A stretch of DNA of 64,000 nt from Candidatus Raymondbacteria bacterium RIFOXYA2_FULL_49_16 (GTDB taxonomy: Bacteria; Fibrobacterota; OXYB2-FULL-49-7; XYB2-FULL-49-35), in assembly GCA_001789205.1 (NCBI GenBank), contig MFYT01000006.1:10770-74769 (forward strand), written 5' to 3'. This document shows positions 6,512 through 29,086 of this stretch, one piece after another. Position 1 is the first letter of the stretch. Each line of letters begins with the position of its first letter. The notes under the pieces were generated by a model that saw only the letters and a list, made by a program, of their open reading frames with translations, was not told where the DNA came from and did no database searches. Position numbers and translations under genes: made by a program.

Positions 6512-9500
6512 TTATTTTTGCGCCTTTTCAATGCCGATTTTTACGGGCGCATCGTTAATAATATACTCTTTTTTTTCCTGAACGGAACCCGGAATCTTGG
6601 CGTCGAGGAAGGTCGCAAGGGTCTCGGACAGAACAAGCTCGCGGTATCGCACGCCAATGGCCGCAGCGAGGGCCGCGTCCGCGGTCTCAAAATGAAGCCG
6701 GATGCGGTCTTCCTTGTCCAGGCCGATTTCCTTGCGCATGGTATTGACGCGGTTCTTGAATTCGAGCGCAAGGCTTTCGGCGAAAAGTTCCTCTGAGATA
6801 GTGATATCGAGCGCCACTGTTATGGCATCGCGCGACTCAATGGCGCCGCTGGTAAGGGAGGTCCGTTCCACCACCACTTCACCGGGTTCGACGGCAACGC
6901 CCAAAATGCTTACGGGCGTGCCGTTGGCAAGCTCTGTTACACGGGCGGGTTCGAGGGCGGCGATGGCTACCGCGGCTTCCTTCATGCGCGGGCCGAACTT
7001 TTTTCCCAGCAGCCGGTAGTTGGGTTTGACCGTAAGCGAAACGATGGCCGTGGCGTCATTGGCCCAATCAATTCGTTTTATATTCAATTCCTCCCTGATC
7101 AGCTGTTCGTAGTGCCGTACCATTGACTGTTCGCGCTGTCCCATCACCACAGTGGCCAGGGGCAGAGGCTGCCGGTTTTTGATGTTGTGTTTGGCGCGCA
7201 GGGCATTGCCAATGCCCACCACGGCGCGTACCAGGCGCATCCGTTCCTCGAGTTCGGGATCAATGTGCGATTCGTCGGCCATGGGATATTCGCAGAGATG
7301 CACGGACGCGGGGCCGCCTTTTAAAGCGAGGTTTTGGTACATTTCCTCGGATACGAAGGGCAGTATAGGCGCCAGGACCTTCGAGAAGGTGAGTAGCACC
7401 GTATGGAGGGTGCTGTGGCATTCGTTTTTGGCGGCGGGGTCATCGGCGACATTGGCCCAAAAGCGTCCGCGGCTCCGCCTGATGTACCAGTTGGTGAGAT
7501 CGTCGATGAAATCGACCACGGCCGGCACCACCTTGTACAGGTTGTACGATTCCATCTGGGCGTTTACTTCCTTGACAAGACTCTGGAGCATGGAGAGGAT
7601 CCAGCGGTCGAGTTCGTTGCGCGAGCGCACGGTGTTGCGCGCGGGGTCCCAGCCGTCGGTGATCGCGTATTCAATGAAAAAGTTATACGAATTCCAGAGC
7701 GGGATAATTACGCTTTTCAGTATTTCCTTTACTCCAGCCTCCGAGAACCGGAGGTCCTCGGCCCTGACAACAGGAGAATTGATGAGATACATGCGCAACG
7801 CGTCAGCTCCATAGGTTTCCATCACATATTCGGGCGCAGGATAGTTCTTGAGGCGCTTGCTCATCTTCTTGCCGTCCTCGGCAAGGATGAGGCCGTTCAC
7901 GATCACGTTTCTGAACGCGGGTTTCTCGAAAAGAATGGTTGAGAGTACGAGAAGGGTGTAGAACCATCCGCGCGTCTGGTCGAGTCCTTCGGCAATGAAA
8001 TCCGCGGGAAAACCCTGTTCAAAAAGCTCTTTGTTTTCAAAGGGATAGTGCTTTTGTCCATAAGGCATTGAACCCGACTCGAACCAGCAGTCAAAGACCT
8101 CGGGCGTGCGCCGCATGGCGCCGGAACAGCCGGACCGTGTGCAGGCAAAGGTGATTGGGTCAAGCGTGTGCTTATGAAGATCGCCGGCAGTACGGCTGGC
8201 CAGGGCCTCAAGCTCTTTGATGGACCCTATGCATTCGACGTGGCCGCACGCTGGACAGATCCATAGGGGGATGCAACTGCCCCAGAAGCGGTTGCGGCTG
8301 ATGTTCCAGTCCTTGGCCTCCTTGAGCCAGTTGCCAAACCGCTTGCTTCCCACGTATTCGGGCACCCAATGGATGCGTTCGTTGCTGGCGCACAGTTTTT
8401 CGCGCAGATCCTCAACCCTGATATACCAGGCTTCGATAGCGCGGTATATCAGGGGAGTGTCGCTCCGGTCGCAGAAGGGGTAGCTGTGCACGATCGTACT
8501 CTGATGCACCAGCTTTCCCTGGCTTTTCAGCATATGGATAATGGCCTTGTCCGCGGCCTTGCAGTGCTGGCCCGAGAAATCCGGGACCATGCCGGTAAAG
8601 TTAGCCTCAATGTCCAGGGGATCGACAATCTCGATGTTCTCCTTGATGGAGATCCGGTAGTCGTCCTCGCCATAGGCGGGCGCCATGTGCACAATACCGG
8701 TGCCGTCCTCGGTGGTGACAAAGGGGTCGTTCAACACCCTGAAGGCGTTGGGGTGGTCTTTGAAATAGGGAAAGAGCGGCTCGTACGCCATGTTGTAGAG
8801 CGCCGTGCCTTTTATGCGAGAAAGGACCTCATACTCGCCGGGTTTTTTGTAATGAGTGGCAAGCCGCGCCTCGGCAAGGTAATAGACCGCGTTCTGGGCC
8901 GTGTCTCGTATCTTGACATAATCAATATCAGGTCCCGCGCACAGGGCCAGGTTGCTGGGGAGCGTCCAGGGTGTGGTGGTCCACACGAGGAAATACTCGT
9001 TTTCCGCACCTTTGATTTTGAATCTGACCGTTATTGAGGGGTCCTGCACGTCTTTGTAATTCGCATTTGCCTCAAAATTGGACAAGGGGGTCGTCAACGC
9101 CCATGAATAGGGCATGACCCGGTGTGCCTTGTACACCCGGCCCTTTTTCCAGATTTCCTTAAAAACCCACCAGACCGATTCCATGAAGGTGCGGTCCATG
9201 GTCTTGTAATCATTGTTAAAGTCGACGAAGCGACCCATGCGGGTGACCGTGGTCCGCCATGCTCCCGCGTATTTAAGCACCGAGGAACGGCAGGTTTCGT
9301 TGAAGAGGGCCACGCCTTTGTTCAGGATTTCGGGCGTGCCTTTGAGGCCCAGTTCGTCCTGCACCAGTTTTTCTATTGGCAGACCGTGGCAGTCCCAGCC
9401 AAAACGGCGTTCGACATAGCGGCCGCGCATTGTCCAGTAGCGGGGCACAATATCTTTGAGCGTGCCCGCGAGCAGGTGGCCGTAATGCGGCAGTCCTGTG

Positions 9501-9649
9501 GCAAAGGGCGGACCGTCGTAAAAGACAAAGGGCTTTTTCGCCTTGGTCTGTTCCAGGCTTTTTTCAAAGGTTTTATTTTTTTCCCAGAGGACCAGTACCT
9601 CTTTCTCCATTTCAGGAAAGGTACGGGATTTATCGAGTTTTTTAAACAT
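6512..9649 (-). CDS. ileS: isoleucine--tRNA ligase (type 2, eukaryote-like)
   Basis: Carries PPFATGLPHYGHLL (HIGH), KMSKRL (KMSKS) and a WCISRQ-like editing domain over ~1045 aa. Start is set at MFKKLDKSRTFPEMEKEVL (ATG 9647-9649). Confidence 0.95.
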   Translation of the reverse strand: MFKKLDKSRTFPEMEKEVLVLWEKNKTFEKSLEQTKAKKPFVFYDGPPFATGLPHYGHLLAGTLKDIVPRYWTMRGRYVERRFGWDCHGLPIEKLVQDELGLKGTPEILNKGVALFNETCRSSVLKYAGAWRTTVTRMGRFVDFNNDYKTMDRTFMESVWWVFKEIWKKGRVYKAHRVMPYSWALTTPLSNFEANANYKDVQDPSITVRFKIKGAENEYFLVWTTTPWTLPSNLALCAGPDIDYVKIRDTAQNAVYYLAEARLATHYKKPGEYEVLSRIKGTALYNMAYEPLFPYFKDHPNAFRVLNDPFVTTEDGTGIVHMAPAYGEDDYRISIKENIEIVDPLDIEANFTGMVPDFSGQHCKAADKAIIHMLKSQGKLVHQSTIVHSYPFCDRSDTPLIYRAIEAWYIRVEDLREKLCASNERIHWVPEYVGSKRFGNWLKEAKDWNISRNRFWGSCIPLWICPACGHVECIGSIKELEALASRTAGDLHKHTLDPITFACTRSGCSGAMRRTPEVFDCWFESGSMPYGQKHYPFENKELFEQGFPADFIAEGLDQTRGWFYTLLVLSTILFEKPAFRNVIVNGLILAEDGKKMSKRLKNYPAPEYVMETYGADALRMYLINSPVVRAEDLRFSEAGVKEILKSVIIPLWNSYNFFIEYAITDGWDPARNTVRSRNELDRWILSMLQSLVKEVNAQMESYNLYKVVPAVVDFIDDLTNWYIRRSRGRFWANVADDPAAKNECHSTLHTVLLTFSKVLAPILPFVSEEMYQNLALKGGPASVHLCEYPMADESHIDPELEERMRLVRAVVGIGNALRAKHNIKNRQPLPLATVVMGQREQSMVRHYEQLIREELNIKRIDWANDATAIVSLTVKPNYRLLGKKFGPRMKEAAVAIAALEPARVTELANGTPVSILGVAVEPGEVVVERTSLTSGAIESRDAITVALDITISEELFAESLALEFKNRVNTMRKEIGLDKEDRIRLHFETADAALAAAIGVRYRELVLSETLATFLDAKIPGSVQEKKEYIINDAPVKIGIEKAQK

Positions 9650-9662
9650 GATACATGTGTCC

Positions 9663-10484
9663 TTACAGTTTTTCCAGCACACCTTCGACCAGTGACACAA
9701 GGCGAGGTTCGGCCTCATTGGCGCGCCTGATGATTTCTTGTATGTCAACCGGCTTGAGCGTATCAGGATCGCATTTATCGGTGATGACGGAAAGACCGAG
9801 CACCTGGAGTCCGCAATGGACTGCCACGGTCACCTCGGGCACCGTTGACATGCCCACCACGTCGGCCCCGATAACGCGCAGCATGCGGTATTCCGCCGCG
9901 GTCTCGAGACAGGGACCACTCATGATCGCGTAGACGCCTTTGCGTACGGAAATGCGTTTGTGCGCGGCAACCTGTTCTGCAAGGCGGATGAGGTCTTTGG
10001 TGTAGGCGTTGAACATGTCGGGAAAACGCGGACCCAGCCGGTTGTCGTTCTTTCCAATGAGGGGCGTCTGGCCCAAAAGGTTGATATGGTCGGTGATGAG
10101 CATGATGTCGCCGGGATCGAGGTCGCGGGAGATGCCGCCGCACGCGTTGGAAACAATGAGCGTCTGGATGCCCAGCGTCTTGAGGACCCGCACCGGATAG
10201 GTGACCTGCTGGAGCGTATAGCCTTCGTAGAAATGAAAGCGGCCCTGCATGACAGCCACTTTTTTTCCCGAGAGAAGGCCCAGAATGAGCTTGCCTGTGT
10301 GGGTCTCGACCGTGGAGAGCGGGAAATGGGGGATGTCGCCGTAGCTTATCTCCGCCTCGCGCTGCACCCGGTCCGCAAGCTTACCCAGGCCTGTGCCCAA
10401 GATGATGCCGATCTCCGGCGTAAACGGCGTGCGCTCCCGTATGGCAGCCACAGATTGTGAAATGCAATCAAAAATTTTGTCCAT
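9663..10484 (-). CDS. purine nucleoside phosphorylase (trimeric PNP family)
   Basis: 273 aa with GIILGTGLG, ISYGDIPHFP, SNACGG, GADVVGMSTVPEV motifs. Confidence 0.85.
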   Translation of the reverse strand: MDKIFDCISQSVAAIRERTPFTPEIGIILGTGLGKLADRVQREAEISYGDIPHFPLSTVETHTGKLILGLLSGKKVAVMQGRFHFYEGYTLQQVTYPVRVLKTLGIQTLIVSNACGGISRDLDPGDIMLITDHINLLGQTPLIGKNDNRLGPRFPDMFNAYTKDLIRLAEQVAAHKRISVRKGVYAIMSGPCLETAAEYRMLRVIGADVVGMSTVPEVTVAVHCGLQVLGLSVITDKCDPDTLKPVDIQEIIRRANEAEPRLVSLVEGVLEKL

Positions 10485-18800: not shown

Positions 18801-19274
18801 TCACCGGTGATAGGCCGTATGGCGGGCGATGGACAACGCCCGGTATATCTGCTCCGCCAGGACCACGAGGGCCACATGGTGATTGAAGGTGAGCGCCGAA
18901 AGAGATATCGCGCTATGCACGTGTTTCAGGATGTCCGGAGCAAACCCGTTAATGCCGCCTATTAAAAATAACAATTTGCCGTTGCTGTGTACACTCTCCT
19001 CAACAAAGGAGGCGAAAGCGAGGCTGTCCAAGGAGCGTCCCGCAGGTGTGAGGAGCACCACGCGTCCCGTGAATCCCTCAAGGGCCTCTATAGCCGCGTC
19101 GGTCTCCTTGCGCACCTGGGTTTTCATGGGTTCGCTGTTGCGGTCCCTGAGACGAATAATGGAAACATCGCACCAGGCGCGGCACAGCACCGCGTAGTGT
19201 CCAGCGCCGCTCTCCGCAAAGGGTTCGGCCCGTTTTCCCACGCAAAGGACCGTGACAGAAGGCTTTATTGCCAT
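18801..19274 (-). CDS. rlmH: 23S rRNA (pseudouridine1915-N3)-methyltransferase RlmH
   Basis: 157-aa SPOUT protein with the GxxxG...LIGG C-terminal trefoil-knot region (LLFLIGGINGF). Confidence 0.85.
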   Translation of the reverse strand: MAIKPSVTVLCVGKRAEPFAESGAGHYAVLCRAWCDVSIIRLRDRNSEPMKTQVRKETDAAIEALEGFTGRVVLLTPAGRSLDSLAFASFVEESVHSNGKLLFLIGGINGFAPDILKHVHSAISLSALTFNHHVALVVLAEQIYRALSIARHTAYHR

Positions 19275-20401
19275 TGGATTTCTTCGCGTTGTTTCTCAAA
19301 AATAAGGCGGATGAGTTTTTCACGGAGCGCGGCATCGATGCTCAGGAAACTGATGTTATTGAAAAGGAAGGACTCGCCGGCCGTGTTTTTTTTCTCGATG
19401 CGGACCACCTTGCTTTTAAGTCCGCGAAACGACTCGCCCCTGAAATTAAAATTGACGGACAATACATCACCCAAATGGAACTCCTCGACCGTGCGGAGTT
19501 TTACTCCGCCGCCGGAAATGTCCTTGATGGTGCCGGTGAATTTGGCCCCGCTTTTGGCGAGTTCGGGGTCGGCCTCGGAGGCGAGTACGCGGAACATGGC
19601 CTCAATGGTCACTTCGAGGCGCAGGTACTCGCGCAGTTGTTTGCGGTCCATCTCGACAACGTGCGCCAAGGTGAGGGACGTATTGTCCGGGCTCTTGGTG
19701 ATTACCAGGGTGCGGAAGCTGTAGACCGCGTCGCCGGTCTGGATGAGCGACACGGCCACCTCAGAGCCCTGGGAAAAAGCGGCCACCGCCTCCTGTTCTT
19801 CGGGATTGACCACTGCCATGGACAATTCGCTGATGTCCCTGATTTTGCTTCTAAACTTGGCGTTGTCCGTACCCTTGACAGGAGATATGTTTATAGGCTG
19901 GCCAGCGGACAACTCGCGCGATGAATAATAGCGGGTGCCGGGCTGCAGCCGCGTGTATTCGAGGCGGCTGCGGATGGCGCTGATGATGTCGCAGACACGG
20001 AGCAACTCGTCGTGTTTGCCCCTGAGGCGTTCGATCTCGGCACTGACACCCTCTTCGAAGGCCTTAATGCTTTTGAACATAACGTCGGACGTCTCAGCGC
20101 CGCTGGCATGGAAGATTCTGCGCAATTCCTGTTTTTCAACATCGTTGAGTCCATGTGTTTTACAGAGGGACTCGAATACGCTCCAGGAGAGTTCGGCGGT
20201 CTTCTGCGATTCGCGCCGTGAGCGGAAGAGTTCGGTACCAAACATTAAGAAGACGGCGAGCAGCAGGACGCCGCCAATGCCAAAAAAGATGTAGAGTGAT
20301 GCGTTGGGCCACGAGGAAAAAATGTCTTTTACCGTATGGGTGGCAGCGTGCGCCGCAACGGGCAGCAAGGCGCACAGGCTCAGGAATACGGGTTTTGCCA
20401 T
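19265..20401 (-). CDS. PilZ domain-containing protein (YcgR-like) with N-terminal signal/TM
   Basis: C-terminal RxxxR..(D/N)ISGGG motif (TGTIKDISGGGVKL). The N-terminal half resembles a YcgR-N/PilZN-like domain. Confidence 0.6.
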   Translation of the reverse strand: MAKPVFLSLCALLPVAAHAATHTVKDIFSSWPNASLYIFFGIGGVLLLAVFLMFGTELFRSRRESQKTAELSWSVFESLCKTHGLNDVEKQELRRIFHASGAETSDVMFKSIKAFEEGVSAEIERLRGKHDELLRVCDIISAIRSRLEYTRLQPGTRYYSSRELSAGQPINISPVKGTDNAKFRSKIRDISELSMAVVNPEEQEAVAAFSQGSEVAVSLIQTGDAVYSFRTLVITKSPDNTSLTLAHVVEMDRKQLREYLRLEVTIEAMFRVLASEADPELAKSGAKFTGTIKDISGGGVKLRTVEEFHLGDVLSVNFNFRGESFRGLKSKVVRIEKKNTAGESFLFNNISFLSIDAALREKLIRLIFEKQREEIQWQ

Positions 20402-20501: not shown

Positions 20502-20813
20502 ATGAAGCGCATATCGGTAAACGAGATAACCGAAGGCATGGTATTGGCAAAACCGGTTGTCGGGTCCGGAGGTAATATCCTCCTTGGCGAAGGTACGGAG
20601 CTTCGTACCACCCTTATTTCGCGACTGCGCAACTGGGGGGTACCTTTTGTGGTCATCCAGAGCCAGGAAGGCGAAATTACCGAGGAAAAGATCACGGCAT
20701 CACTTGATACGAAACGACAGGAAGTGGAACGGGTATTTGAACAGGTGAAAAACCATCCACTTATGGCCATTATTTATGAAGCGACAAAAGAGCATTTTGG
20801 GAAGGCATCATGA
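20502..20813 (+). CDS. standalone DUF3391-like domain protein
   Basis: I.V.EI.EGMVLAKPV...G..LL..GT.L.....SRL...GV..V.I matches the N-terminal domain normally fused to HD-GYP phosphodiesterases. Its stop overlaps the HDOD start (ATGA). Confidence 0.45.
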   Translation: MKRISVNEITEGMVLAKPVVGSGGNILLGEGTELRTTLISRLRNWGVPFVVIQSQEGEITEEKITASLDTKRQEVERVFEQVKNHPLMAIIYEATKEHFGKAS

Positions 20814-21688
20814 TTACCGCTAGCACAATCGGATCACAGGAAAAGCTGAAACTGGCGGTTGACCGCATTACGGGCCTGCCAACGCTGCCGCAGGTCATCA
20901 CTGAAATCACCCGGCTCATGCAAAATCCCCGTACCTCCGCCGAGGAGGTGGGCAAGGCGCTCATTATGGACCAGGCGCTTGCCTCAAAGGTACTCAAGCT
21001 GGTCAATTCCGCTTTTTACGGGTTTCCGGGCCGCATCAATACCATTACCCACGCTATTGTCATACTCGGGTTCAACACGGTCAAAAATATCATTCTTACC
21101 GCATCCATTTTTGAGACACTGGGCGGCAAGGGCGGAGGCCAGAAGGAATTTGACATTGAAAAATTCTGGCTCCATTCGATAGGCACCGGGGTCCTTGCGC
21201 GTGAAATATCGAAAAAGCTCAACTTCAAGTTCTTTGAAGAATGCTTCCTGGGAGGCCTGCTCCACGACCTTGGTAAAATCATCCTGTATAAATTCATGCC
21301 CGAGGAGATGGACAAGGTGCTCCAGGTACAGAAGGAGGAAAACTGCCTTTTCTTCCTGGCTGAGAAAAAAGCGCTTGACGTTACCCACGATCAGATTGGT
21401 GGCTGGCTGACCAGCAAATGGAACCTGCCCGAGGATTTACGCAACGCGGTACTGTATCATCACATGCCCATGCTTTCGGGAAAATACGCCATGATGGTTT
21501 CGATCGTCCACATTGCCGATATCCTGTGCCGCGCGCTCTGCATTGGGTCGGGCGGGGACTCCACCATCCCGGTTGTCGATGAAAAAGCGTGGGAAAAACT
21601 GAAATTTTCGCGGCAGCTGATAGACAAGATCTACAGCGACATCGATTTAGAGCTCGAAAAGGCCGCGGTCTTCTTTCAGATAATGTGA
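20810..21688 (+). CDS. HDOD domain-containing signalling protein
   Basis: LPTLP..I..I..L..N...S..E.....I..D.AL..KVLKLVNSAFYG is the HDOD signature. 292 aa. Confidence 0.8.
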   Translation: MITASTIGSQEKLKLAVDRITGLPTLPQVITEITRLMQNPRTSAEEVGKALIMDQALASKVLKLVNSAFYGFPGRINTITHAIVILGFNTVKNIILTASIFETLGGKGGGQKEFDIEKFWLHSIGTGVLAREISKKLNFKFFEECFLGGLLHDLGKIILYKFMPEEMDKVLQVQKEENCLFFLAEKKALDVTHDQIGGWLTSKWNLPEDLRNAVLYHHMPMLSGKYAMMVSIVHIADILCRALCIGSGGDSTIPVVDEKAWEKLKFSRQLIDKIYSDIDLELEKAAVFFQIM

Positions 21689-22239
21689 TCTTTCGCGCCC
21701 GAGTCTGCGACCAACAAAGCACAGAGAATTGTTTTTGAATCGATTATTTCTTTTCGTTGCACCAGCCATAACAGTTTTTTAAACGGCATACTTACCTGTT
21801 CCACGAATTCTGTTTTGTCGAGTTTCAGCGATCCGGTATTCACGAGATCCGTTCCCGCAAATAAGGTGATGAAACCCGTGGAGTATCCTTCGGCATGGGC
21901 ATAGGTAAGCAGCTTTCTCAGGCGCCGCGGCCGAAAGCCGGTCTCCTCGGCGCATTCCCTGCGTGCACACGCCGCAGGAGTTTCTTTTTTGTCAATTACT
22001 CCCGCCGGAATTTCCAGAATGGTGCGGCCAATTGCCGGTCGGTGCTGCCGTACCAGATGAACAATGCCATGATTGTCGATCGGCAGAACAGCCACGGCAT
22101 CGCGCACGCGCACAATTTCCCTTAATGCGCGCTTACCGTCCGGCAGGGTGATGGTGAGCCGTTCGAGAGAGAGATAGGAGCCGGTAAAGGGGCGTTCCCG
22201 CTTTGTTACCGGCTCGAACAGAGGATCGTGGCGTTTCAT
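21676..22239 (-). CDS. NUDIX hydrolase (ADP-ribose pyrophosphatase-like)
   Basis: Nudix box GVIDKKETPAACARRECAEETGF (Gx5Ex7REUxEExGU). Confidence 0.8.
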   Translation of the reverse strand: MKRHDPLFEPVTKRERPFTGSYLSLERLTITLPDGKRALREIVRVRDAVAVLPIDNHGIVHLVRQHRPAIGRTILEIPAGVIDKKETPAACARRECAEETGFRPRRLRKLLTYAHAEGYSTGFITLFAGTDLVNTGSLKLDKTEFVEQVSMPFKKLLWLVQRKEIIDSKTILCALLVADSGAKDHII

Positions 22240-22250
22240 GACCAGGGGAT

Positions 22251-23066
22251 TTACCAGCCGAGCGAAGAGTCTTTTTTCCGGTTCCAGTCCGCCCAGCCAG
22301 CGGAGCCTATTTTTTTCGCGTCAATTGGCCGAAGCGCGCAATTTGTGCCATTGACAATGGAAAAGGCCCGGCGTTCCTCATCGAGCATGGCGCGGAGCTT
22401 CTCTTCCTGCTCTTTCTGGTGTTGCTCAAAGGCTTGCTCTTGTTCCGCAGCGTATTTTTCGAACTCCACGTCCGCTTGGGCCGCATAGTCCTGGAAGGCC
22501 TTTTCCTGCTGTTTCAGGTATTGTTCCATGTTCTTCACCAAGTCGATCTGCTTTCCCTGCTGCACGACAAAGACCGAATCGCGGCCCCCTGTCTTGTTTG
22601 ACAATAACACGCCAATGGCCCCCTTGAAGACCAGGTATTTTGAGGCATTGGTATTGCTTTCAACGGCAAAGACCGTGCCCCGGATGGCGGCCGAGGCCGT
22701 GGGCGTTGAGACCTCGAAGCGTTGGGGGCCCACCAGCCGTTTCACATTGACCCAGATAGACCCTTTTACCGCGTTGACTTTTGTCAGCGAACTGTCAATG
22801 GCGCTTACCACTACAAGGGCGTTTTCATCGATACGCACCACACGGTCACTGGCCAGGGTCACTTCGCAGCGCGACTCGGCCTTGGTGGCCACTGCGTCGT
22901 TTTCGAACAGGGGCAGCCGTATCCGGGCCTTTACCCACGATGAGTCACTGCTGCGTTTAATGAATACGTCGCCAACCATGTCCGAGACCTGGCCCAGGGG
23001 CTGTTTTGCCCACCCGGCATTTGCCAGAAAAAAAATCGCGCAAAACGCGGCGGTTATTTTATGCAT
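22251..23066 (-). CDS. periplasmic FecR-domain protein with C-terminal coiled coil
   Basis: Signal peptide MHKITAAFCAIFFLANAGWA, a FecR-like beta domain, then an EQ-rich coiled coil. It lacks the cytoplasmic anti-sigma N-terminus. Confidence 0.55.
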   Translation of the reverse strand: MHKITAAFCAIFFLANAGWAKQPLGQVSDMVGDVFIKRSSDSSWVKARIRLPLFENDAVATKAESRCEVTLASDRVVRIDENALVVVSAIDSSLTKVNAVKGSIWVNVKRLVGPQRFEVSTPTASAAIRGTVFAVESNTNASKYLVFKGAIGVLLSNKTGGRDSVFVVQQGKQIDLVKNMEQYLKQQEKAFQDYAAQADVEFEKYAAEQEQAFEQHQKEQEEKLRAMLDEERRAFSIVNGTNCALRPIDAKKIGSAGWADWNRKKDSSLGW

Positions 23067-24811
23067 TTGCCCTTGACCTGTCCCACGAGGTTATCGGCAA
23101 GGGGCCGCAGATTGGTGATGTCAAAGCCTGAGGCGCTCATGGCGCAGAGGGCCGTGCCCTTGCCCGAGTCAATGATGCGCGCGTCGACCTCGATTTTTCC
23201 CGCGACCACACTGGCGCTGCCAATGAGGATGAGTTCCGCGCCAGCCAACTGGGCTATCTGCAGGGCCTCGCTTTGTTCAACAATACCGCTTTGGCCCAGG
23301 GTCTTCTCTTCCATGATCTTGTTGATCTGGGAGCGCTCGACCACGTCGAACTTGCGCGAGTTGATGAGCTTGGTGATAATCATGTCGGAGACTGACTCTG
23401 CAAGGTTGTACCAGTCGGTATAGGCGCTCATGTTTTTAAATGGGAAGACCGCGATGGTGCGCTTTGGCGTATCAGCGCCCGCCCCGCAGATTTTATCGAG
23501 TATGAGTTTTATGTCGCTCTTGATGCCCACATTACCAATGCCCTGGGACACTGATTTGCCAAGTGTGCTGCCTGTGCCCTTGCCTATTTTTTCGAACGAT
23601 ACAATGCTTTTACCGTCCTGAATCAGGGCAAAGCCCATGGTCACGTCGCTTTTGACAAAGGTACGCGCTTCGGAAAGGCCCTGAACATTGCCGGTTTCCT
23701 TTGCGGAAAGCGATACCTCAATCGTGTTTTCAGACGCCGTGTCCATTTGCACGTCGTATTTGCCCAGAAGTTTTATGGCTTTGTCGGTAAGGTCGATCTG
23801 GTCGGCCCTGAGTTCGGGCGCGACCTTGACTGTTATTTTTGCCCAGCAGGGGTTTGAATTCACCTTGTAGGTAAAGGTCTGGTCGGTTGCGGCAAGGACC
23901 TTGCGGAGGGTCTCGTTTACCGGGAGCCTGACGCAGGTAATGTATTTGTGGCTGCCCACGGCGCTGTTCACGTTTTCGCCCAGGCTGAACGATGCTGAAC
24001 CCGATTCATCGGTGTATTTTTCCATGACAGTCTTTTTCGCCTCGTCCTTGAGTTCAACAAGGGTCCCCGCCACTGGTACGCTTTCCGCACTCACGGTGAT
24101 CATAAAAGGCGCCTCGGGTACCATGCCAACGGTAAGTTCCTGGTTGTCGCCCGCGGCCTTTTCGACTTTGATTGAGGCAACACACTTTTCGTAGAGCGCG
24201 GCAATGTCGTTTACCGACACGTCGATCTGTTCCGCGGCGGTGACCTCGGCTGCGGCCGAGAGTAGGGTGCGCTGTTCCATGATGTCCGCGATGTCGCGTT
24301 TGGCGGCCGAGAGCTTTTTCATGCCCTGGCCGATTTTGCCGGCCCCGATATCGGCCTTGGCGCCGTTCATCTGCGTGGCAAGGTCTTTTTTCAATTCCTG
24401 TATTCTTGCTTTGGTGTTGGACACGAAGTTGTTTTTATCCAGGACCGCGAGCGCATAGTAGATTTTACCCTGCTGGGCGGTCTCGACCACCTGGATGCCC
24501 TGGATGTCTCCTGAAGTGGTGAGCTGCGCGCGCGATGCGGACTTGGAGGTTGTCTTTTCAGCGCCATTGATGGAGAACGAAGTCATTTCATCGAAGGTAG
24601 AGGCGTTTACTTTTACTGAAATCTGCTTTTTGACTTCAACCATGGCGCTCTGCTTTGCGGCATCAGCGCCTTTTTCTGAGAGGCCCACGCCTACAAAATA
24701 GAGCGCGTTGGGATAGCCCTGGTGCTTGCCCGTGGTAATCCAATCATTTGCGGCGAAGAGCGCGACAGCCGCGCACAGCAGGCCAATCCGGGTGAGAAGA
24801 GTGGATGTCAT
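23054..24811 (-). CDS. LPP20-like N-terminal domain fused to a CsgG/TolB-N-like C-terminal domain (secreted)
   Basis: Start MTSTLLTRIGLLCAAVALFA with AAGGAG 8 nt upstream. The N-terminal WITTGKHQGYPNALYFVGVG resembles LPP20. The C-terminal TIAVFPFKN...LAESVSDMIITKL..S.KFDVVERSQINKIMEE..LGQSG resembles CsgG. Confidence 0.55.
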   Translation of the reverse strand: MTSTLLTRIGLLCAAVALFAANDWITTGKHQGYPNALYFVGVGLSEKGADAAKQSAMVEVKKQISVKVNASTFDEMTSFSINGAEKTTSKSASRAQLTTSGDIQGIQVVETAQQGKIYYALAVLDKNNFVSNTKARIQELKKDLATQMNGAKADIGAGKIGQGMKKLSAAKRDIADIMEQRTLLSAAAEVTAAEQIDVSVNDIAALYEKCVASIKVEKAAGDNQELTVGMVPEAPFMITVSAESVPVAGTLVELKDEAKKTVMEKYTDESGSASFSLGENVNSAVGSHKYITCVRLPVNETLRKVLAATDQTFTYKVNSNPCWAKITVKVAPELRADQIDLTDKAIKLLGKYDVQMDTASENTIEVSLSAKETGNVQGLSEARTFVKSDVTMGFALIQDGKSIVSFEKIGKGTGSTLGKSVSQGIGNVGIKSDIKLILDKICGAGADTPKRTIAVFPFKNMSAYTDWYNLAESVSDMIITKLINSRKFDVVERSQINKIMEEKTLGQSGIVEQSEALQIAQLAGAELILIGSASVVAGKIEVDARIIDSGKGTALCAMSASGFDITNLRPLADNLVGQVKGKCIK

Positions 24812-24898
24812 GAACAGGTCTCCTTTCTTAGAAAAAACGGCCGGCACAGGTGCCGGCCGTTGTATGGTTCACACGAGAGGGCATTATTGCTGGCGGTG

Positions 24899-26143
24899 TT
24901 ATTCCGGCTGGACCCCGCAGATGATCAGTTTGCGGTTGAGAACAATCTGGGTCACCTTGGCCGTACCAGTCATTTTTTTCTGGATAAAACGCATGACATT
25001 GCGGGCTTTCTTGAAATCGTCCTTTTTCGCCCACACATTGTAGTCCATGGTTTTGTCCGTTGCCACGTTTTCCTTGTTCTTCGCAAAGCCTTCGTCAATG
25101 CAGTCGGAGATGGCGTCCTGGACAGTCTGGATATCGTCAAACCCGCTGGTGATGTTGAAGATAAGTTTGTACTGGATGCCGTCGTTGAGGTCCTTGGTCC
25201 AATAGGCGGAAACACGTGCGAGCACTTTGTCGATGGCGTCGTTGATGGCCTCTTCGACCAGGGGTTCCATGGCAGCGCCTGCGCGGGTTTTGCTGTAGCC
25301 GGTTTCTGTTCCAAGCAGGCGGGCCGTGGTGGTTTCATAGGCCTTGACCTGGACGGAAGCTTTGCCGTTTGTCACTGTTCCGGCAAAAATAATATAGACG
25401 TCAGAACCAAGGGCCAGGGCGATCTGATAGGCAATGTCCTCTTCTGCGCCTTTTACCTCGGCCTGCATCTTGGACTGATCGGCAAGCTGCTCGGCGGCGC
25501 GGGGAACAGCCACCTCGTAGGTGCGGGCAGTGAGATAGCTTTCAATTACCGCTGCAGCGTGTCTGGCCAGCGGGTTGGTGTCAAAGACCTGCATGGGGGT
25601 TTGGCCCTTGGGGGTCTCGGGGATGACCATGATGACCGGATTTCCCTGTGCAGAGGCGAGCGCGTCCTTTGACACAATCACGTTCTTTGCAGCAAGATCA
25701 TCGGTGAGCTTCTGCTTGTTTACCCTGAAGAGCTTGGTCATTTTCACGCCTTTTTCTCCGTCGGGCAGCTTGGTCTTTACTGTTGAGATGACCTTGTCAG
25801 CTTCCCACGAAATATAGACGTTCACATTTTCGCCTTTGAAGAACTCTTCGGCAATGCCTTCGAATTTAGTCTTTGCGTCAGGCGAATTGAGCAGCGGATC
25901 CGTGCCGCCGACGAGTACAAACCAGACCGCCGACTTGCGCGCGTCGAGCAGTGCGTTCTTTTCCATGTCGTTCACGAACCAGCCAGTCTTGCCGCCCAGG
26001 CCAGTCGCACTGATGGTAACTTCTGCGGACGAGAAACTCTCAACAAAGGTCGCCTGATTAGACAACGGCTTGTTGGATTCGTCCTTGGCAAAAGCGCTGA
26101 AGGCCAGCAGGCCCACGCACAGGAGTGAAGTGATTAATTTCAT
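24899..26143 (-). CDS. hypothetical secreted protein with two CsgG/TolB-N-like segments
   Basis: Signal peptide MKLITSLLCVGLLAFSAFA. Contains repeated (I/V)xVxPxxxK-type segments (NPVIMVIPETPKGQ). No named family. Confidence 0.45.
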   Translation of the reverse strand: MKLITSLLCVGLLAFSAFAKDESNKPLSNQATFVESFSSAEVTISATGLGGKTGWFVNDMEKNALLDARKSAVWFVLVGGTDPLLNSPDAKTKFEGIAEEFFKGENVNVYISWEADKVISTVKTKLPDGEKGVKMTKLFRVNKQKLTDDLAAKNVIVSKDALASAQGNPVIMVIPETPKGQTPMQVFDTNPLARHAAAVIESYLTARTYEVAVPRAAEQLADQSKMQAEVKGAEEDIAYQIALALGSDVYIIFAGTVTNGKASVQVKAYETTTARLLGTETGYSKTRAGAAMEPLVEEAINDAIDKVLARVSAYWTKDLNDGIQYKLIFNITSGFDDIQTVQDAISDCIDEGFAKNKENVATDKTMDYNVWAKKDDFKKARNVMRFIQKKMTGTAKVTQIVLNRKLIICGVQPE

Positions 26144-26167
26144 TATTTGTTTCCTTTTCTATAAATG

Positions 26168-27847
26168 TTACAGACCAAGACGGCCGCGAACCATGTCAAC
26201 AGGATCGAACGGCAGCGATGGCGGAGACCAGGTGAGACCAGCGTGAATGCCAATGCCTGAATGGGGGAAATCACCAGTCTGCCAGTCGCTTGCGAGAGTT
26301 GCTGATTCAAACCGGATGCTTAGATCTGCTATGAGGGCCGGGGTAAGGTTAAATCCGGCATTGGCTCCTGCAAAAAAGCCCATTCCCGAGAAGGTTTCAT
26401 CGATGCTCAAGCTGAAGGCACCCGCACCAATGGATCCGCGTGAGGCTGTGGCTGAAAATGAAGCCAATCCGGCTTCAACGCCCAGGGTGAATCGCTTGAC
26501 CAAAAAGCGTTTCATAAGAAGAATATCGAGCTGCCCGACCGATGCGCCGTCCGAATATGTGGCAATGTCTGCTTCTCCGGCAGATCCGAGACCATAGCCA
26601 ACACCGGCAAAGAGCTGGTTGACGCCAAAATGACGGCCAATATTGTATCGTGCGTCGAGCTGGAGCCCCATACCCATGCCCAAGATGGCAGTGTCACCGC
26701 TGTTTGCCACACCGGGGAAGGTGCGGAACTTGATTGCAATGTCGATGGGGATGCGGGGAAATTCGGAAAGCACTGAACCGGTCATTGGTTCGCCGGCAAC
26801 GATCTGCGCCTTGGATTTGTAGCCTTCCTTGCTGTTGGAGTCGGCGACCATGGAGACAACAACCCAGCCGTTAAAGGTGGATTTGACCGAGCCGTCTTCT
26901 GATTCTTCAAATTCGGCAATGCGGAATTTATCGTCGGCACGGAGACCTTCATTTTTTCCAAGATCGAAACCGACCTTGCCAGCATCGACTTCAACAACCT
27001 GTCCGGAAAGGCGGAATTCGGGCATTTCCTGGGTGGCGACCAACAGATTGCGGGCCGCATTTTTTACGCATGAACGGAAGGCGAATTCTTTGTGGTCAAC
27101 AAGTTTTCCGTCCTTCATGAAGGTTTTACCTTCTTTTGCAAAGCCCATGGATTTGGTCATTTTTTTGACCACCAGCTTGGCCTGGGCCTTTTCGCCCTTG
27201 GTTGATATGCGGTACCAGAGAATACCCACATCCATGAGCATTTTGTACTGGCCGCCGCTGGTGAGTCCCGAGTAGCTTTTACACACGGGGATGAAGATAA
27301 AGGCTGAGTTCATGACTTTTGCGATTTCAACATCGCTAAAGCCGAATTCTTTTGCCTTGATGGCGTAGAAGGAGTTGCGGTCAGCCTCGCTGGTGTAGTT
27401 TTGGGCGCGCAGTTCCTTGTTCAGATCGACGATGGCCAGGATTTTTGGCACAATGGTTTTGTCCATAATCTCGGCGATATTGTCGATGGTGATTTCTTCC
27501 TTGGCATTTGCCTGGGCCACAAAGTCGCTGATGAATGACTGGGGAAGAGGATTGTAGTCGAAGCGGGGCATCATGAGTTTTTCCTTGATCTTCTCAAGGG
27601 TGTATCCCACGTATTCGCCCGGCATGCCGCGCACTGATTTGTCCATGAGCCAGAGCGCGTCGATAAAGGTGACTGACTTGCGTTCGTATTTGCCTGCTTC
27701 GGTTGTGGCCGCGTCCTGCTCGGCTTCGGCGCTTTCGAGAAGCGCCTGGTTGTCAGGCGCGGGTGCTGCCTGTTCAGCGGTTTGTGCTGCGACCGGAACA
27801 ATGGCTGCAAGAACCACGATTAAGGCTATTGCAATGATCTTTTTCAC
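26168..27847 (-). CDS. hypothetical secreted protein with Gly-rich beta-rich C-terminal region (possible outer-membrane barrel)
   Basis: Signal peptide MKKIIAIALIVVLAAIVPVAAQ with RBS AAGGAAGG. The C-terminal 200 aa has alternating G/A/S hydrophobic dyads typical of OM beta-barrels. Confidence 0.45.
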   Translation of the reverse strand: MKKIIAIALIVVLAAIVPVAAQTAEQAAPAPDNQALLESAEAEQDAATTEAGKYERKSVTFIDALWLMDKSVRGMPGEYVGYTLEKIKEKLMMPRFDYNPLPQSFISDFVAQANAKEEITIDNIAEIMDKTIVPKILAIVDLNKELRAQNYTSEADRNSFYAIKAKEFGFSDVEIAKVMNSAFIFIPVCKSYSGLTSGGQYKMLMDVGILWYRISTKGEKAQAKLVVKKMTKSMGFAKEGKTFMKDGKLVDHKEFAFRSCVKNAARNLLVATQEMPEFRLSGQVVEVDAGKVGFDLGKNEGLRADDKFRIAEFEESEDGSVKSTFNGWVVVSMVADSNSKEGYKSKAQIVAGEPMTGSVLSEFPRIPIDIAIKFRTFPGVANSGDTAILGMGMGLQLDARYNIGRHFGVNQLFAGVGYGLGSAGEADIATYSDGASVGQLDILLMKRFLVKRFTLGVEAGLASFSATASRGSIGAGAFSLSIDETFSGMGFFAGANAGFNLTPALIADLSIRFESATLASDWQTGDFPHSGIGIHAGLTWSPPSLPFDPVDMVRGRLGL

Positions 27848-27882
27848 ATGACCTTCCTTTTTTGTTTATGTTTTTGTAATTA

Positions 27883-28434
27883 CTAGTTGTTCTGGAGTTT
27901 GTCGAGTTCCTTATCAAGGTTCTCAAAGCCCTGTTTGGCGCGGAATTCAGAGAGTAGGGCCTCGCGCGAGGTAAGCGAATTGGTGACCTGCTGTTTCACG
28001 AAATCTTTTACCGCAGGGTCTGTGGTGTTGAGCACTGCCAGGGAATACATGGATCCATTTACAAATTCGCGGCGTTCAATGACCACGCCAATAAGGTTCT
28101 GGTCTGTGATGGAACGGGTGACGGACTGTGAGAACTCAGTAACTTCAGGGCTGTTGATGCCTGATTCCTGCATGAACTGGGAGGTCATATTGGAGATCTT
28201 CTGTCCCAATATCTTCGCGATCTCTGTTTTTGCATTGAGATCGGCAATGTCTTTTGCCAACTGGGGGCTCGCTTTTTTCGCAATTCCTGTGCCATAAAGT
28301 TTGCCTGGCGCAGAGGGAGGGTTGAGGACAAACGCGGGCATGCCGGACTGGTCGACCGGAGCAGCCTCTTTTGTACCGCCGCAATTTACAAGCATGAGAC
28401 TGAGACCCAGAAGGGCCGGAACGAGGAATCGCAT
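27883..28434 (-). CDS. LPP20 family lipoprotein
   Basis: Lipobox LMLVNCGG. PAFVLNPPSAPGKLYGTGIA...AK..A...A..EIAKIL is the LPP20/FlgP-like signature. Confidence 0.7.
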   Translation of the reverse strand: MRFLVPALLGLSLMLVNCGGTKEAAPVDQSGMPAFVLNPPSAPGKLYGTGIAKKASPQLAKDIADLNAKTEIAKILGQKISNMTSQFMQESGINSPEVTEFSQSVTRSITDQNLIGVVIERREFVNGSMYSLAVLNTTDPAVKDFVKQQVTNSLTSREALLSEFRAKQGFENLDKELDKLQNN

Positions 28435-28587
28435 GAAACCTCCAATTGGGTTAAGTTGTTGTTATTTATGACTTACAGCATTTTCTGATCCAATAGTATA
28501 TGTTTTAAGTATTTTTACAGTCAAGGGATATTAATACATATTCTGTATTTGTAGTTTTTATAGTTTTAGTGACCATAGAATTAATCA

Positions 28588-29086
28588 ATGAGACGAATAC
28601 TAATATTGATGCTCTGCATTGCCGCTGATAAAAAGGGCGTTGTCTGGTTTGGCCATTTTTTTAGTCTCACCTGTCTTTTAAAAAATGCGACGCTTGTCCG
28701 CTATACGCCTGAAAATGGCCTGCTCAGCAAGGAGATAAACCAGGTGCTCTGTACGTCAAAAGGCGAGTTGTGGGTCAGTTATATGGGCAAAACCGCCAAG
28801 GTGAGCAGGTCAATGGACCAGGGAAAAAACTGGGAGCATTTTGAGCCTGTGACAGTCAAAGGTCTTGGCATGCAGGAGCCGGTTGGTCTTGGATGGTTGG
28901 AAAAAATATAAGCAGGAAGAAAAGGGGCTTGCCAGTTATCGCGTCTGGGACGTATTTGTTGACGCGACAAACGCGGTCTGGTGCGCATTTGTACTCGCGA
29001 TAGCCCAGATACCCGATGGGACGCTGTGGTTTGCTACGGCCCAGGGTGTCAGCTCGTTTGCTGGTGAGAAGAGACCCCGTGCGTAG
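28588..29086 (+). pseudogene. degenerate fragments of a two-component-regulator propeller (Reg_prop) sensor domain
   Basis: Two short overlapping ORFs carry Reg_prop-like blades (GELWVSYMGK..., GTLWFATAQGVSSFAG) but no complete domain, start or kinase part. Confidence 0.3.

Follow-up and report, generated by a model that had tools for sequence, protein, structure and literature searches.

A Raymondbacteria copy of an uncharacterised envelope module conserved across the FCB superphylum

The H-ring of the Vibrio flagellar motor consists of 26 FlgT and 26 FlgP subunits, with a presumed FlgO subring outside them (PMC12222027, PMC13626733), and FlgT docks on the L/P rings (PMC13626733). FlgT, FlgP and Lpp20 share the SHS2 fold (PMC12222027, PMC13626733), and in FlgP a beta-hairpin insertion correlates with ring formation (PMC12222027). 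[quoted passage not shown]

Here we describe a locus that resembles several of these systems in part. It comes from an aquifer genome of Candidatus Raymondbacteria, related to Fibrobacterota, and was analysed within a stretch of 64,000 nucleotides (the window). Its five genes, A to E, contain the Raymondbacteria copy of an uncharacterised envelope module that is conserved across the FCB superphylum.

Gene layout and transcription signals

The five genes are co-directional on the minus strand, as the first-pass annotation had read them (Table 1). The strong ribosome-binding sites that it described are present in front of A to D as Shine-Dalgarno-like GGAGG (A), AAGGAAGG (B), AAAGGAAA (C) and AAGGAG (D), and E overlaps D by the 13 nt reported. 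All gaps had been given as 55 nt or less; counting D from the ATG that yields the annotated 585 aa, the gap between C and D is 87 nt. Export signals were found on all five products, again in agreement, with a lipobox in A and N-terminal signal-peptide-like sequences, read by eye, in B, C, D and E. The AT-rich island in front of these genes indeed has the lowest GC of any 160-nt stretch in the window (28441-28620, 26% GC), and it contains the best-scoring promoter candidate of the region, located 5' of gene A. On its match to the consensus, this site may be the promoter of gene A.

A terminator-like, GC-rich hairpin followed by a T-run occupies the C-D gap, directly upstream of the D ribosome-binding site, and the gap as a whole has a minimum free energy of -28.2 kcal/mol (z-score of -2.6). 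A hairpin plus U-run also occurs 3' of C in related Fibrobacterota loci, both where D comes next and where it does not (loci L010, L012, L013, L015, L017, L018, L025, and L033). The hairpin divides A-B-C from D-E both here and in relatives, and the earlier description of a five-gene operon is therefore overstated. A sixth co-directional gene, encoding a NudE-like NUDIX hydrolase, begins 11 nt downstream of E, with which it is probably co-transcribed in this genome. Only the closest relatives (L030 and L094) have this gene near the module; we regard it as a local addition outside the conserved module.

Table 1. Features of the Raymondbacteria locus, in window positions
Feature	Position	Strand	Description
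Promoter candidate	28495-28524	-	Sigma-70-like, TTGACT-18 nt-TATACT; 10/12 consensus matches
Gene A	27883-28434	-	183 aa
Gene B	26168-27847	-	559 aa, GTG start; signal peptide, variable linker, conserved EAGKYERKS motif, periplasmic module, barrel, then conserved LPFDPxDMxRG tail
B periplasmic module	26753-27685	-	~residues 55-365; best structural match FlgT
B predicted outer-membrane barrel	26213-26752	-	~residues 366-545; C-terminal, 8-stranded
Gene C	24899-26143	-	414 aa
Terminator-like hairpin and T-run	24830-24861	-	Between C and D; 11 bp, 8 G-C pairs
Gene D	23054-24811	-	585 aa counted from ATG
D LPP20 domain	24437-24742	-	Residues 24-125; Pfam E=3.9e-9
D CsgG/LpoB/FlgO/TolB_N-like C-terminal domain	23141-23473	-	Residues 447-557; Pfam CsgG E=5.9e-15
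Gene E	22251-23066	-	271 aa
E FecR domain	22614-22898	-	Residues 57-151; Pfam E=3.5e-13
NUDIX hydrolase gene	21676-22239	-	Pfam NUDIX E=3e-15

Extent of the conserved module

Conservation was counted over the best 80 loci. These repeat the gene order [A]-B-C-D-[A] and come from about ten lineages of the FCB superphylum: Fibrobacterota, Cloacimonadota, Neomarinimicrobiota, Kryptoniota, LCP-89, Zixibacteria, Latescibacterota, Ignavibacteria, and Chlorobi-type and other Bacteroidota. MAGs labelled Fibrobacter succinogenes, Chlorobiales, and Chloroherpetonaceae carry the module as well. B lies directly 5' of C in at least 50 of the 64 loci with enough flanking sequence, a D-like gene follows C in 51 of 67, and an A-like gene occurs in 30 of 80. 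E-like genes accompany only four of the 80 loci, D lies on a different contig in a close relative (GCA_016788315.1), and no other recurrent neighbour family was found in more than 10 of the 80. The conserved unit is thus smaller than five genes, comprising B and C with at least one LPP20-domain partner (lipoprotein A and/or D). The first-pass idea of an uncharacterised envelope assembly that co-occurs across genomes holds for this core but fails for the five genes as one unit; because D and E can be separated from the core, composition differs between lineages.

E appears to be a lineage-specific accessory, consisting of a signal peptide, a FecR domain, and a charged helical segment of ~65 aa. 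Its closest NCBIfam models are secreted Leptospira FecR-domain proteins, Lsa33 (E=8.6e-16) and LipL45 (E=6.8e-9), but both matches fall far below the equivalog cutoffs, and E is not conserved with the module. That A to E form a FecR-type cell-surface signalling system, or are adjacent by chance, has next to no probability. The FecR domain does pass the Pfam cutoff; however, E lacks the cytoplasmic anti-sigma domain of FecR anti-sigma factors, as had been noted from its N terminus, no ECF sigma factor or TonB-dependent receptor is adjacent, and E is rare among related loci. Chance adjacency is excluded for A to D by a gene order conserved across phyla.

Module proteins and their structural relatives

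B, a core component, matched no Pfam or NCBIfam family. An exhaustive HMM search with B returned 691 clusters at 50% identity, and nearly all of the 150 matches listed were full length. In Foldseek searches of the PDB, the AlphaFold2 model of B (pLDDT 85) matched FlgT best (8z5n, E=2.6e-9; 3w1e, E=2.2e-8), followed by NspA, Ail, OmpA, and OmpW. The C-terminal barrel suspected earlier is seen in the model as ~180 aa in 8 strands, with target TM-scores of ~0.56-0.72 to NspA, Ail, OmpA, and OmpW, and B is accordingly modelled as a putative integral outer-membrane protein. C, the other core component, is more conserved than any other module protein, with 40-80% identity across FCB phyla and 218 relatives in a one-genome-per-species collection. 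It is a soluble periplasmic DUF6175 protein of three domains (Pfam E=3e-11, 43 bits against a cutoff of 23). Its model (pLDDT 88) also matched FlgT best (3w1e, E=2.2e-7; 8z5n, E=5.6e-7), and the next informative matches were PelC, LpoB, CsgG, and GNA1162 at E ~1e-4. The middle domain is TolB_N/PelC/LpoB/CsgG-like; of the two CsgG/TolB-N-like segments previously proposed for C, this one domain stands, and two segments could not be confirmed.

The proposed likeness to H-ring proteins is stronger than could be told at first reading, with FlgT being the best solved-structure match of two separately predicted models, at E values of 2e-7 to 3e-9 over 330-415 alignment columns. Global TM-scores are low (0.2-0.3), which points to shared domain composition, not rigid superposition. 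At the sequence level, profile searches related neither B nor C to FlgT, nor B to C, and neither protein passes the Pfam FlgT_N, FlgT_M, or FlgT_C models. Directly 5' of B in seven LCP-89/Zixibacteria-type loci lies a ~380-aa protein, which scored 31-37 bits against the FlgT_N cutoff of 28.8 in the four copies scanned singly; a batch census suggests FlgT_N in two more copies. The profile of this protein matches that of C weakly (hhalign probability of 53%, E=1.4e-4, 150 columns).

A is a small outer-membrane lipoprotein with an LPP20 (SHS2-fold) domain of the FlgP/Lpp20 type. The lipobox of the original assignment is firm, with Cys18 invariant in 18 aligned homologues; the Pfam LPP20 match is weak (E=1.6e-4, 22.5 bits, below the cutoff of 25.9), and alignment of the A family to the D N terminus by hhalign supports the domain (98.2% probability). 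A thereby parallels FlgP and Lpp20 as a lipoprotein, and A and the D N terminus both belong to the LPP20/SHS2 family, but they differ from the basal disk in having no motor context. Read by eye, the A family alignment contains no obvious beta-hairpin insertion of the ring-forming FlgP kind, an observation that speaks against ring formation.

Like the H-ring, the module combines FlgT-like proteins (the B periplasmic part and C), an LPP20/FlgP-type lipoprotein, and a FlgO/TolB_N-type domain in clustered genes, with products assigned to the periplasm and outer membrane. It is nonetheless very improbable that the proteins serve flagellated Fibrobacterota as true motor accessories, equivalent to an H-ring or basal disk, although the D gene of a close relative (L095) lies ~4 kb from two flagellin genes and the window encodes CheD and PilZ proteins. 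No flagellar or curli genes were found among those called on ~60 kb of the contig overlapping the window, as first stated, no flagellar gene recurs beside the module across the 80 loci, and partners such as MotX/MotY or FlgH/FlgI are missing. Moreover, the MAGs carrying the module include some labelled as Fibrobacter succinogenes, Chlorobiales, and Chloroherpetonaceae, lineages that are not known to have flagella. B also has its own predicted 8-stranded barrel, in contrast to FlgT with its docking on the L/P rings (PMC13626733), and ring formation in the module is hypothetical.

D is a periplasmic multidomain partner whose annotated fusion of an LPP20 N terminus to a CsgG-like C terminus was recovered by Pfam; the region between the two is helical and beta-rich. 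The C terminus also matches LpoB (4.5e-7), FlgO (2.4e-4), and TolB_N (1.2e-3). This domain type is linked to B by homologues of B that have a CsgG/LpoB-like domain at the N terminus (P0006 above the Pfam cutoff, P0046 weakly).

A curli-like or Pel-like secretion channel for polymer or amyloid draws on the same domains. At 55.6 bits D exceeds the Pfam cutoff for CsgG, C has a structural likeness to PelC (E=8e-5 and a target TM-score of 0.57 in Foldseek), and like the Pel exporter the module has an outer-membrane barrel partner; the LCP-89-type array includes an SLBB protein, and a Poly_export gene lies near the Chitinivibrio-type locus. However, D matches only profile positions 6-97 of 210, and the PDB profile search aligned only CsgG residues 60-134, which make up the alpha/beta portion at the N terminus of the fold, so D has no counterpart of the barrel-forming region; the D domain is predicted to lack the CsgG transmembrane hairpins. 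D also has no lipobox in this organism. The B barrel has only 8 strands, like OmpA/OmpX/NspA, which are not known to form an export pore; PelB is a much larger porin, and C, unlike PelC, is not a lipoprotein. Together, the missing channel-forming part of D and the small B barrel make a secretion pore unlikely. With no curlin, csgA/B/E/F or pel genes linked, and no glycosyltransferase or polysaccharide-synthesis gene recurring beside the module, the secretion channel that the first-pass annotation had listed among its options is highly implausible.

The LpoB matches raise another alternative, an outer-membrane-anchored cell-wall regulator or tether, acting either as an LpoB-like activator of peptidoglycan synthases or as a tie between outer membrane and peptidoglycan. 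Both the D C terminus (NCBIfam LpoB E=7e-7) and the LpoB/TolB_N-type fold of the C middle domain fit this explanation, and the layout of B, a barrel with a periplasmic domain, parallels OmpA-type tethers. We consider it improbable, as the TolB_N-like fold serves many unrelated functions (CsgG, PelC, FlgO, GNA1162), the LpoB score of 29 bits falls far short of the family cutoff of 110, and the top-25 families of immediate neighbours include no penicillin-binding protein and no domain that binds peptidoglycan (OmpA_C, LysM).

Type IX secretion neighbours and a proposed outer-membrane scaffold

In four phyla the module adjoins T9SS genes, in four different arrangements, which suggests a T9SS link. 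Seven LCP-89/Zixibacteria-type loci have the array PorU, PorV2/PorV family, 260-aa protein, SLBB protein, FlgT_N protein, B, and C (PorU as NCBIfam T9SS sortase, E=2e-73; PorV2/PorV, E=1e-26). In a Bacteroidota MAG (L065), A, an LPP20 protein, B, C, and D are followed by PorU (Peptidase_C25, E=3e-91) and PorV (PF19572, E=3e-30). A PorV-like gene lies directly 5' of B in a Cloacimonadota MAG (L052), and a TPR protein takes this place in four Fibrobacterota loci, with PorW/SprE as its top-ranking NCBIfam model (E from 1e-29 to 1e-35). The module could thus be a T9SS-linked platform, periplasmic and anchored in the outer membrane, acting together with the PorU/PorV sorting complex or with PorW/SprE. 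The module, too, is confined to FCB lineages, the range reported for T9SS (PMC11205867).

The association nevertheless involves only ~13 of 85 loci. Gene calls over ~60 kb of source contig overlapping the window include no T9SS families, and none adjoin the module in the closest relatives. The PorW/SprE-like matches, at 103-124 bits, do not reach the family cutoff of 250, and the 80 best loci include no genome of the Bacteroidia or Flavobacteriia, where T9SS is best studied. We found no paper linking LPP20 to T9SS, nor any literature on a link between the module and T9SS. Placement of these genes inside a known T9SS locus had been named at the outset as a finding that would speak against a distinct assembly; the adjacency in other phyla bears on this in part, but A to E match no NCBIfam T9SS model or described T9SS family, and the putative link is one of gene adjacency. 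We therefore regard a T9SS-linked platform as possible but on the unlikely side; it would refine the idea of a scaffold and does not exclude it. With the T9SS PorK/N ring and PorG the module would share the concept of a periplasmic structure held by a small barrel protein.

Our preferred explanation, at a probability of roughly 0.45, is that the module builds a multiprotein scaffold on the periplasmic side of the outer membrane, a non-flagellar analogue of the H-ring. A structural role is the default reading and is hard to distinguish from a regulatory or secretion-accessory one. The B barrel and the lipid anchor of A would hold the scaffold in the outer membrane, C would bind the periplasmic module of B, and D would reach from the assembly towards peptidoglycan. 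These contacts are purely inferred, as is the oligomerisation of the whole into a ring or plate, which would resemble that of FlgT, FlgP, and FlgO in the Vibrio H-ring. The terminator-like hairpin after C may make A-B-C more abundant than D-E, with E and the NUDIX gene as probable local additions. Such an assembly would serve as structural support or as a docking platform for the outer membrane or an outer-membrane machine.

Gene organization and candidate expression signals of the locus

The ORF listing bore out the five co-directional minus-strand genes proposed in the first-pass annotation, which we refer to as A (an LPP20-domain lipoprotein), B (a periplasmic part resembling FlgT plus an outer-membrane barrel), C (a DUF6175 protein), D (an LPP20 domain plus a CsgG/LpoB/FlgO/TolB_N-like C terminus), and E (a FecR-domain protein). 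A and B are separated by 35 nt and B and C by 24 nt, D and E overlap by 13 nt, and a NUDIX gene follows E after 11 nt. Gaps of no more than 55 nt had been claimed, which is wrong for the 585-aa form of D, as the C-D spacer is then 87 nt. The ATG start of this form (24811) is favored by gene callers and by the ribosome-binding site; a GTG start at 24847 (597 aa) was rejected because it falls inside a hairpin. A, B, C, and D are each preceded by a Shine-Dalgarno-like motif. Many near-identical contigs from aquifer metagenomes carry the same gene calls, and the nearest NCBI match of B is a protein of Candidatus Raymondbacteria bacterium RifOxyC12_full_50_8 (99% identity).

Coordinates of the five genes and of the hairpin between C and D
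Feature	Position	Strand	Description
A	27883-28434	minus	183 aa
B	26168-27847	minus	559 aa, GTG start
C	24899-26143	minus	414 aa
D	23054-24811	minus	585 aa from ATG
E	22251-23066	minus	271 aa
Terminator-like hairpin	24830-24861	minus	11 bp, GC-rich, then T-run; inside the 87-nt C-D spacer

The AT-rich island described upstream of A is indeed the lowest-GC 160-nt stretch of the window (28441-28620; 26%), and it contains a candidate sigma-70-like promoter (TTGACT-18 nt-TATACT), the best match in the region. Downstream of C, the ribosome-binding site of D directly follows the T-run of the hairpin. A GC-rich hairpin with a U-run also lies directly 3' of C in related Fibrobacterota loci (handles beginning with L denote the loci compared), both where D comes next (L010, L018, L025, and L033) and where it does not (L012, L013, L015, and L017). 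Taken together, this pattern across related loci suggests that A-B-C may be the primary unit, with D-E expressed by read-through or separately. It also suggests that the hairpin could act as an internal terminator or attenuator, which could set the C:D expression ratio.

Beside the AT-rich island, a short plus-strand ORF (28588-28911) gives a faint match to Reg_prop (two-component regulator propeller) only, consistent with the sensor-propeller gene remnant noted previously. The NUDIX (21676-22239), HDOD (20810-21688), and PilZ (19265-20401) genes flank the module in the window. The closest relative, L030, repeats the HDOD-containing flank, with NUDIX at a distance, and this local order is common to this clade only.

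Domain content and predicted structures of the module proteins

The score of A against LPP20 (PF02169) is 22.5 bits, just below the Pfam cutoff of 25.9. Because the A family aligns to the LPP20 domain of D with 98% hhalign probability and its lipobox Cys is invariant, A is predicted to be an LPP20-type lipoprotein. The N-terminal LPP20 match of D itself exceeds the gathering score (37.3 versus 25.9 bits; E=4e-9), and in most D homologues the N terminus is a standard signal peptide and not a lipobox. The C-terminal ~110-aa domain of D matches CsgG (E=6e-15), LpoB, FlgO, and TolB_N in Pfam. However, the CsgG match (PF03783) spans only profile positions 6 to 97 of 210, and in a PDB profile search D residues 470 to 540 align only to CsgG residues 60 to 134, after which ~45 residues of D remain. 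Since both matches are partial, the membrane-barrel-forming region of CsgG is absent from D.

No Pfam or NCBIfam family matched B. C belongs to DUF6175 (PF19672; 43.4 bits versus a cutoff of 23, E=3e-11; residues 168 to 356, profile positions 2 to 224 of 293), and its homologues carry the source name "DUF6175 family protein." We predicted structures of B and C from homologue alignments (pLDDT of 85 and 88, respectively) and compared the B model with 350,000 solved chains by Foldseek. The B model consists of a disordered linker, a periplasmic alpha/beta module, and a C-terminal barrel with eight predicted strands between residues 368 and 540; three further strands of 16 to 17 residues lie at 181 to 238. 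The top two matches were both FlgT (cryo-EM LPHT ring 8z5n, E=2.6e-9; crystal structure 3w1e, E=2.2e-8), followed, for the barrel, by NspA, Ail, OmpA, and OmpW (target TM-score, ~0.56 to 0.72). At the sequence level, weak OMP_b-brl matches were seen in B homologues only. The C-terminal outer-membrane beta-barrel anticipated for B in the first-pass annotation is thus upheld by the model.

Modeled separately, C also matched FlgT best (E=2.2e-7 and 5.6e-7), followed by PelC, LpoB, CsgG, and GNA1162, which have a common TolB_N-like fold. The FlgT matches of B and C cover 327 to 415 alignment columns with global TM-scores of just 0.2 to 0.3, and given these low scores we limit the claim to a shared multi-domain make-up: in the models, B and C resemble FlgT in their multi-domain composition and not as a rigid-body match. 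[quoted passage not shown] By hhalign, B and C showed no relationship. Most other pairings of single domains from A, B, C, and D were likewise negative, apart from the A-D match given above and a weak one (33%) between the C terminus of D and the middle domain of C. Some B homologues have an N-terminal CsgG/LpoB-like domain (P0006 above the Pfam cutoff, P0046 weakly), and these fusions link the C-terminal domain type of D to B.

A secretion channel had been among the functions considered possible for the operon. The CsgG-like domain of D recalls the curli secretion channel, but D differs from CsgG in its lack of the barrel-forming region, and linked curli genes are missing. Genes for curlin (CsgA/B) and CsgE/F were found neither in the window, as the first-pass annotation had stated, nor in related loci, and Pfam matches on ~60 kb of overlapping contig were to housekeeping families only. 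A CsgG-type channel was rejected because the CsgG domain of D is partial, and this, together with the 8-strand barrel of B, makes a secretion pore unlikely.

Conservation and composition of the module across the FCB superphylum

An indexed search returned only Fibrobacterota-type and metagenome proteins for the B family. An exhaustive profile search returned 691 clusters at 50% identity, 276 of them with E<=1e-30. Because nearly all of the 150 clusters among the matches listed align along their entire length, B is a coherent protein family that no Pfam model covers. Conservation is much stronger in C than in B (50 to 80% identity within Fibrobacterota for C), and a one-genome-per-species scan recovered 218 relatives. 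The best 80 of these 218 (40 to 79% identity) belong to Fibrobacterota, Cloacimonadota, Neomarinimicrobiota, Kryptoniota, LCP-89, Zixibacteria, Latescibacterota, Ignavibacteria, Chlorobi-type lineages, and other Bacteroidota.

We searched all ORFs of these 80 loci with profiles or sequences of A to E and found the gene order [A]-B-C-D-[A] to be strongly conserved. Among the 64 loci with enough flank, at least 50 have B as the gene directly preceding C, and a D-like gene lies downstream in 51 of 67. An A-like lipoprotein is encoded in 30/80 loci, E in only 4/80, and NUDIX only in the closest relatives. Unbiased clustering of all neighboring ORFs turned up no further family shared by more than 10 loci, and hence no other widely conserved partner. 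D can also be detached from the core, as in GCA_016788315.1, where it sits on another contig although the C of that genome and the C of the window are 79% identical. Based on these counts and on the separability of D, the conserved core consists of B, C, and one or more LPP20-domain partners, with E and NUDIX as local additions; NUDIX was rejected as a module member for want of conservation. Co-occurrence of the five genes across FCB genomes, raised in the first-pass annotation, therefore holds for this core but not for E.

E consists of a signal peptide, a FecR domain without an anti-sigma N terminus, as had been described, and a charged helical segment. Although the domain might suggest FecR signaling, Pfam and NCBIfam scans found no anti-sigma module, the score against the NCBIfam FecR equivalog is 20.6 bits versus a cutoff of 385, and no sigma factor gene adjoins E. 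We rejected FecR signaling on these grounds and on the rarity of E; a gene so seldom present and without a sigma factor partner is unlikely to give the module such a role.

Several individual loci stand out. Two tandem B paralogues precede C in L023 (5324-8949; a Fibrobacterota MAG) and L027 (2863-6449; a MAG labeled Fibrobacter succinogenes). In L049 a single 769-aa ORF (7888-10197) matches both the B and C profiles; it is a genuine fusion of B and C, or else the product of a lost stop codon or an error in assembly. A MAG labeled "archaeon" (L090; JBAZPA010000107.1) carries a B-C pair arranged as in the Neomarinimicrobiota locus L086 and is probably a mis-binned bacterial contig. Kryptoniota-type loci (L008, L044, L045, L062, L063, and L076) have an extended cluster downstream of C, comprising an LPP20 protein (447 aa), an LPP20 lipoprotein (191 aa), DUF454, another LPP20 protein (318 aa), a separately encoded CsgG-like protein (302 aa), an LPP20-DUF4384 protein (650 aa), and a protein that joins a caspase (Peptidase_C14) to an outer-membrane barrel; their B also bears an N-terminal CarboxypepD_reg domain.

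Possible relation to the flagellar H-ring and to type IX secretion

FlgP, Lpp20, and FlgT have a common SHS2-type fold (PMC12222027), and the Vibrio H-ring is composed of 26 copies each of FlgT and FlgP, FlgO being presumed to form an outer subring (PMC13626733). Given these published folds and this make-up, the module has counterparts of all three H-ring proteins, the likeness in B and C being a FlgT-type multi-domain fold (SHS2-type, TolB_N-like, and C-terminal domains) recognized by Foldseek. The C-terminal tail of FlgP binds a groove in the FlgT ring (PMC13626733). Among LPP20/FlgP proteins, ring formation has been linked to a beta-hairpin inserted after the SHS2 helix and ahead of the second strand (PMC12222027); by eye, no obvious insertion of hairpin length is present in the A-family alignment. 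In 7 LCP-89/Zixibacteria-type loci, a ~380-aa protein is encoded directly upstream of B, and four copies scanned one by one matched FlgT_N (31 to 37 bits versus a Pfam cutoff of 28.8). Its profile aligns weakly with that of C (hhalign, 53%), and the protein provides a sequence-level link of the module to FlgT.

The best NCBIfam match of one such FlgT_N protein (L047, 5995-7134) is LipL46, and those of E are Leptospira Lsa33 and LipL45, all far below cutoffs, which hints that poorly understood spirochaete outer-membrane antigens may share domains with module partners.

Despite this likeness, the module differs from the H-ring in having no recurrent linkage to flagellar genes. None recurs next to it across the 80 loci, and none occurs in the window, in accord with the first-pass annotation, or among Pfam matches on ~60 kb of overlapping contig. 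The module is found in MAGs labeled Fibrobacter succinogenes, Fibrobacter sp., Chlorobiales, and Chloroherpetonaceae; the Fibrobacter, Chlorobiales, and Chloroherpetonaceae lineages are not known to have flagella. A flagellar accessory was rejected for lack of linkage, which, together with presence in MAGs of such lineages, makes a flagellar role unlikely. In the close relative GCA_016788315.1, D (L095, 1372-3247) lies between beta-helix proteins, and two flagellin genes are found ~4 kb away. Flagellin genes are thus encoded in this lineage at least, but their proximity to D is a single, nonconserved case.

Family scans of neighbors showed that the module adjoins type IX secretion system (T9SS) genes in four arrangements. 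The 7 LCP-89/Zixibacteria-type loci (L034, L047, L049, L051, L056, L066, and L067) share a conserved seven-gene array, in which ~9 kb upstream of and including B-C encode, in order, a PorU-like protein, a PorV2/PorV-family barrel (E=1e-26), a 260-aa protein that matched no family, a 163-aa SLBB protein, the FlgT_N protein, B, and C. The first belongs to Peptidase_C25, bears a T9SS sorting tail, and matches the PorU sortase model of NCBIfam (E=2e-73); NCBIfam labels the first two genes as a putative second sorting system, PorU2/PorV2. L065, a Bacteroidota MAG, has the order A, LPP20, B, C, D, PorU, PorV (Peptidase_C25, E=3e-91; PorV, E=3e-30), and in L052, a Cloacimonadota MAG, a PorV-like gene directly precedes B. 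Finally, in four Fibrobacterota loci (L007, L017, L019, and L021) a TPR protein is encoded directly upstream of B; PorW/SprE was the top NCBIfam match for each of three copies scanned (E of 1e-29 to 1e-35, below the model cutoff). By rough estimate, a given single-copy gene would fall in a random 18-kb window in <1% of cases, and chance is therefore an unlikely explanation for several independent arrangements. The T9SS has been reported from the FCB superphylum only (PMC11205867), and the module likewise appears confined to it.

A T9SS-linked role is the most interesting live alternative and is compatible with a scaffold. However, such adjacency (PorU/PorV or PorW/SprE-like) occurs in only ~13/85 loci, T9SS genes were found neither near the module in the window nor among Pfam matches on ~60 kb of overlapping contig, and A to E matched no NCBIfam T9SS model at E<=0.1. 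A literature search found no paper linking LPP20 or DUF6175 to the T9SS, nothing on DUF6175, and nothing relevant on LPP20, CsgG, and Bacteroidetes.

For the scaffold reading, we propose that the barrel of B and the lipid anchor of A would hold the assembly in place on the inner side of the outer membrane. There, the LPP20 domains of A and D and the modules of B and C that resemble FlgT would form an oligomeric scaffold. D may contribute its TolB_N-like domain beyond a long middle region, extending deeper into the periplasm, and the assembly could serve as a structural or docking platform. Gene content, export signals, folds, and conserved gene order are results of the analysis; the contacts, oligomeric state, and role are what we infer from them. 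Since its components use known folds and resemble those of the flagellar H-ring, the module would be a non-flagellar outer-membrane scaffold of a known kind. It is uncharacterised and very widespread, with two links, evolutionary and functional, that can be tested. We give a probability of roughly one in five to the full reading, in which the B-C-LPP20 module is an unrecognised FCB-wide periplasmic ring or platform, evolutionarily related to H-ring proteins, that works with the T9SS secretion and sorting machinery (PorU/PorV and PorW). If so, FlgT/FlgP/FlgO-type scaffolds would be a general outer-membrane docking device and not a flagellar invention, recruited independently by two different envelope machines.

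B represents a new protein family that lacks a Pfam model, and DUF6175 gains structural and genomic context. If our interpretation is true, an unstudied, conserved, and abundant-looking outer-membrane assembly would span a whole superphylum, with carriers including rumen Fibrobacter, marine Marinimicrobia, Cloacimonadota, and green sulfur bacteria. The recurrent PorU/PorV/PorW adjacency would nominate new candidate T9SS components outside the well-studied Bacteroidia, and a non-flagellar relative of H-ring and basal-disk proteins would make the origin of these flagellar add-ons directly testable.
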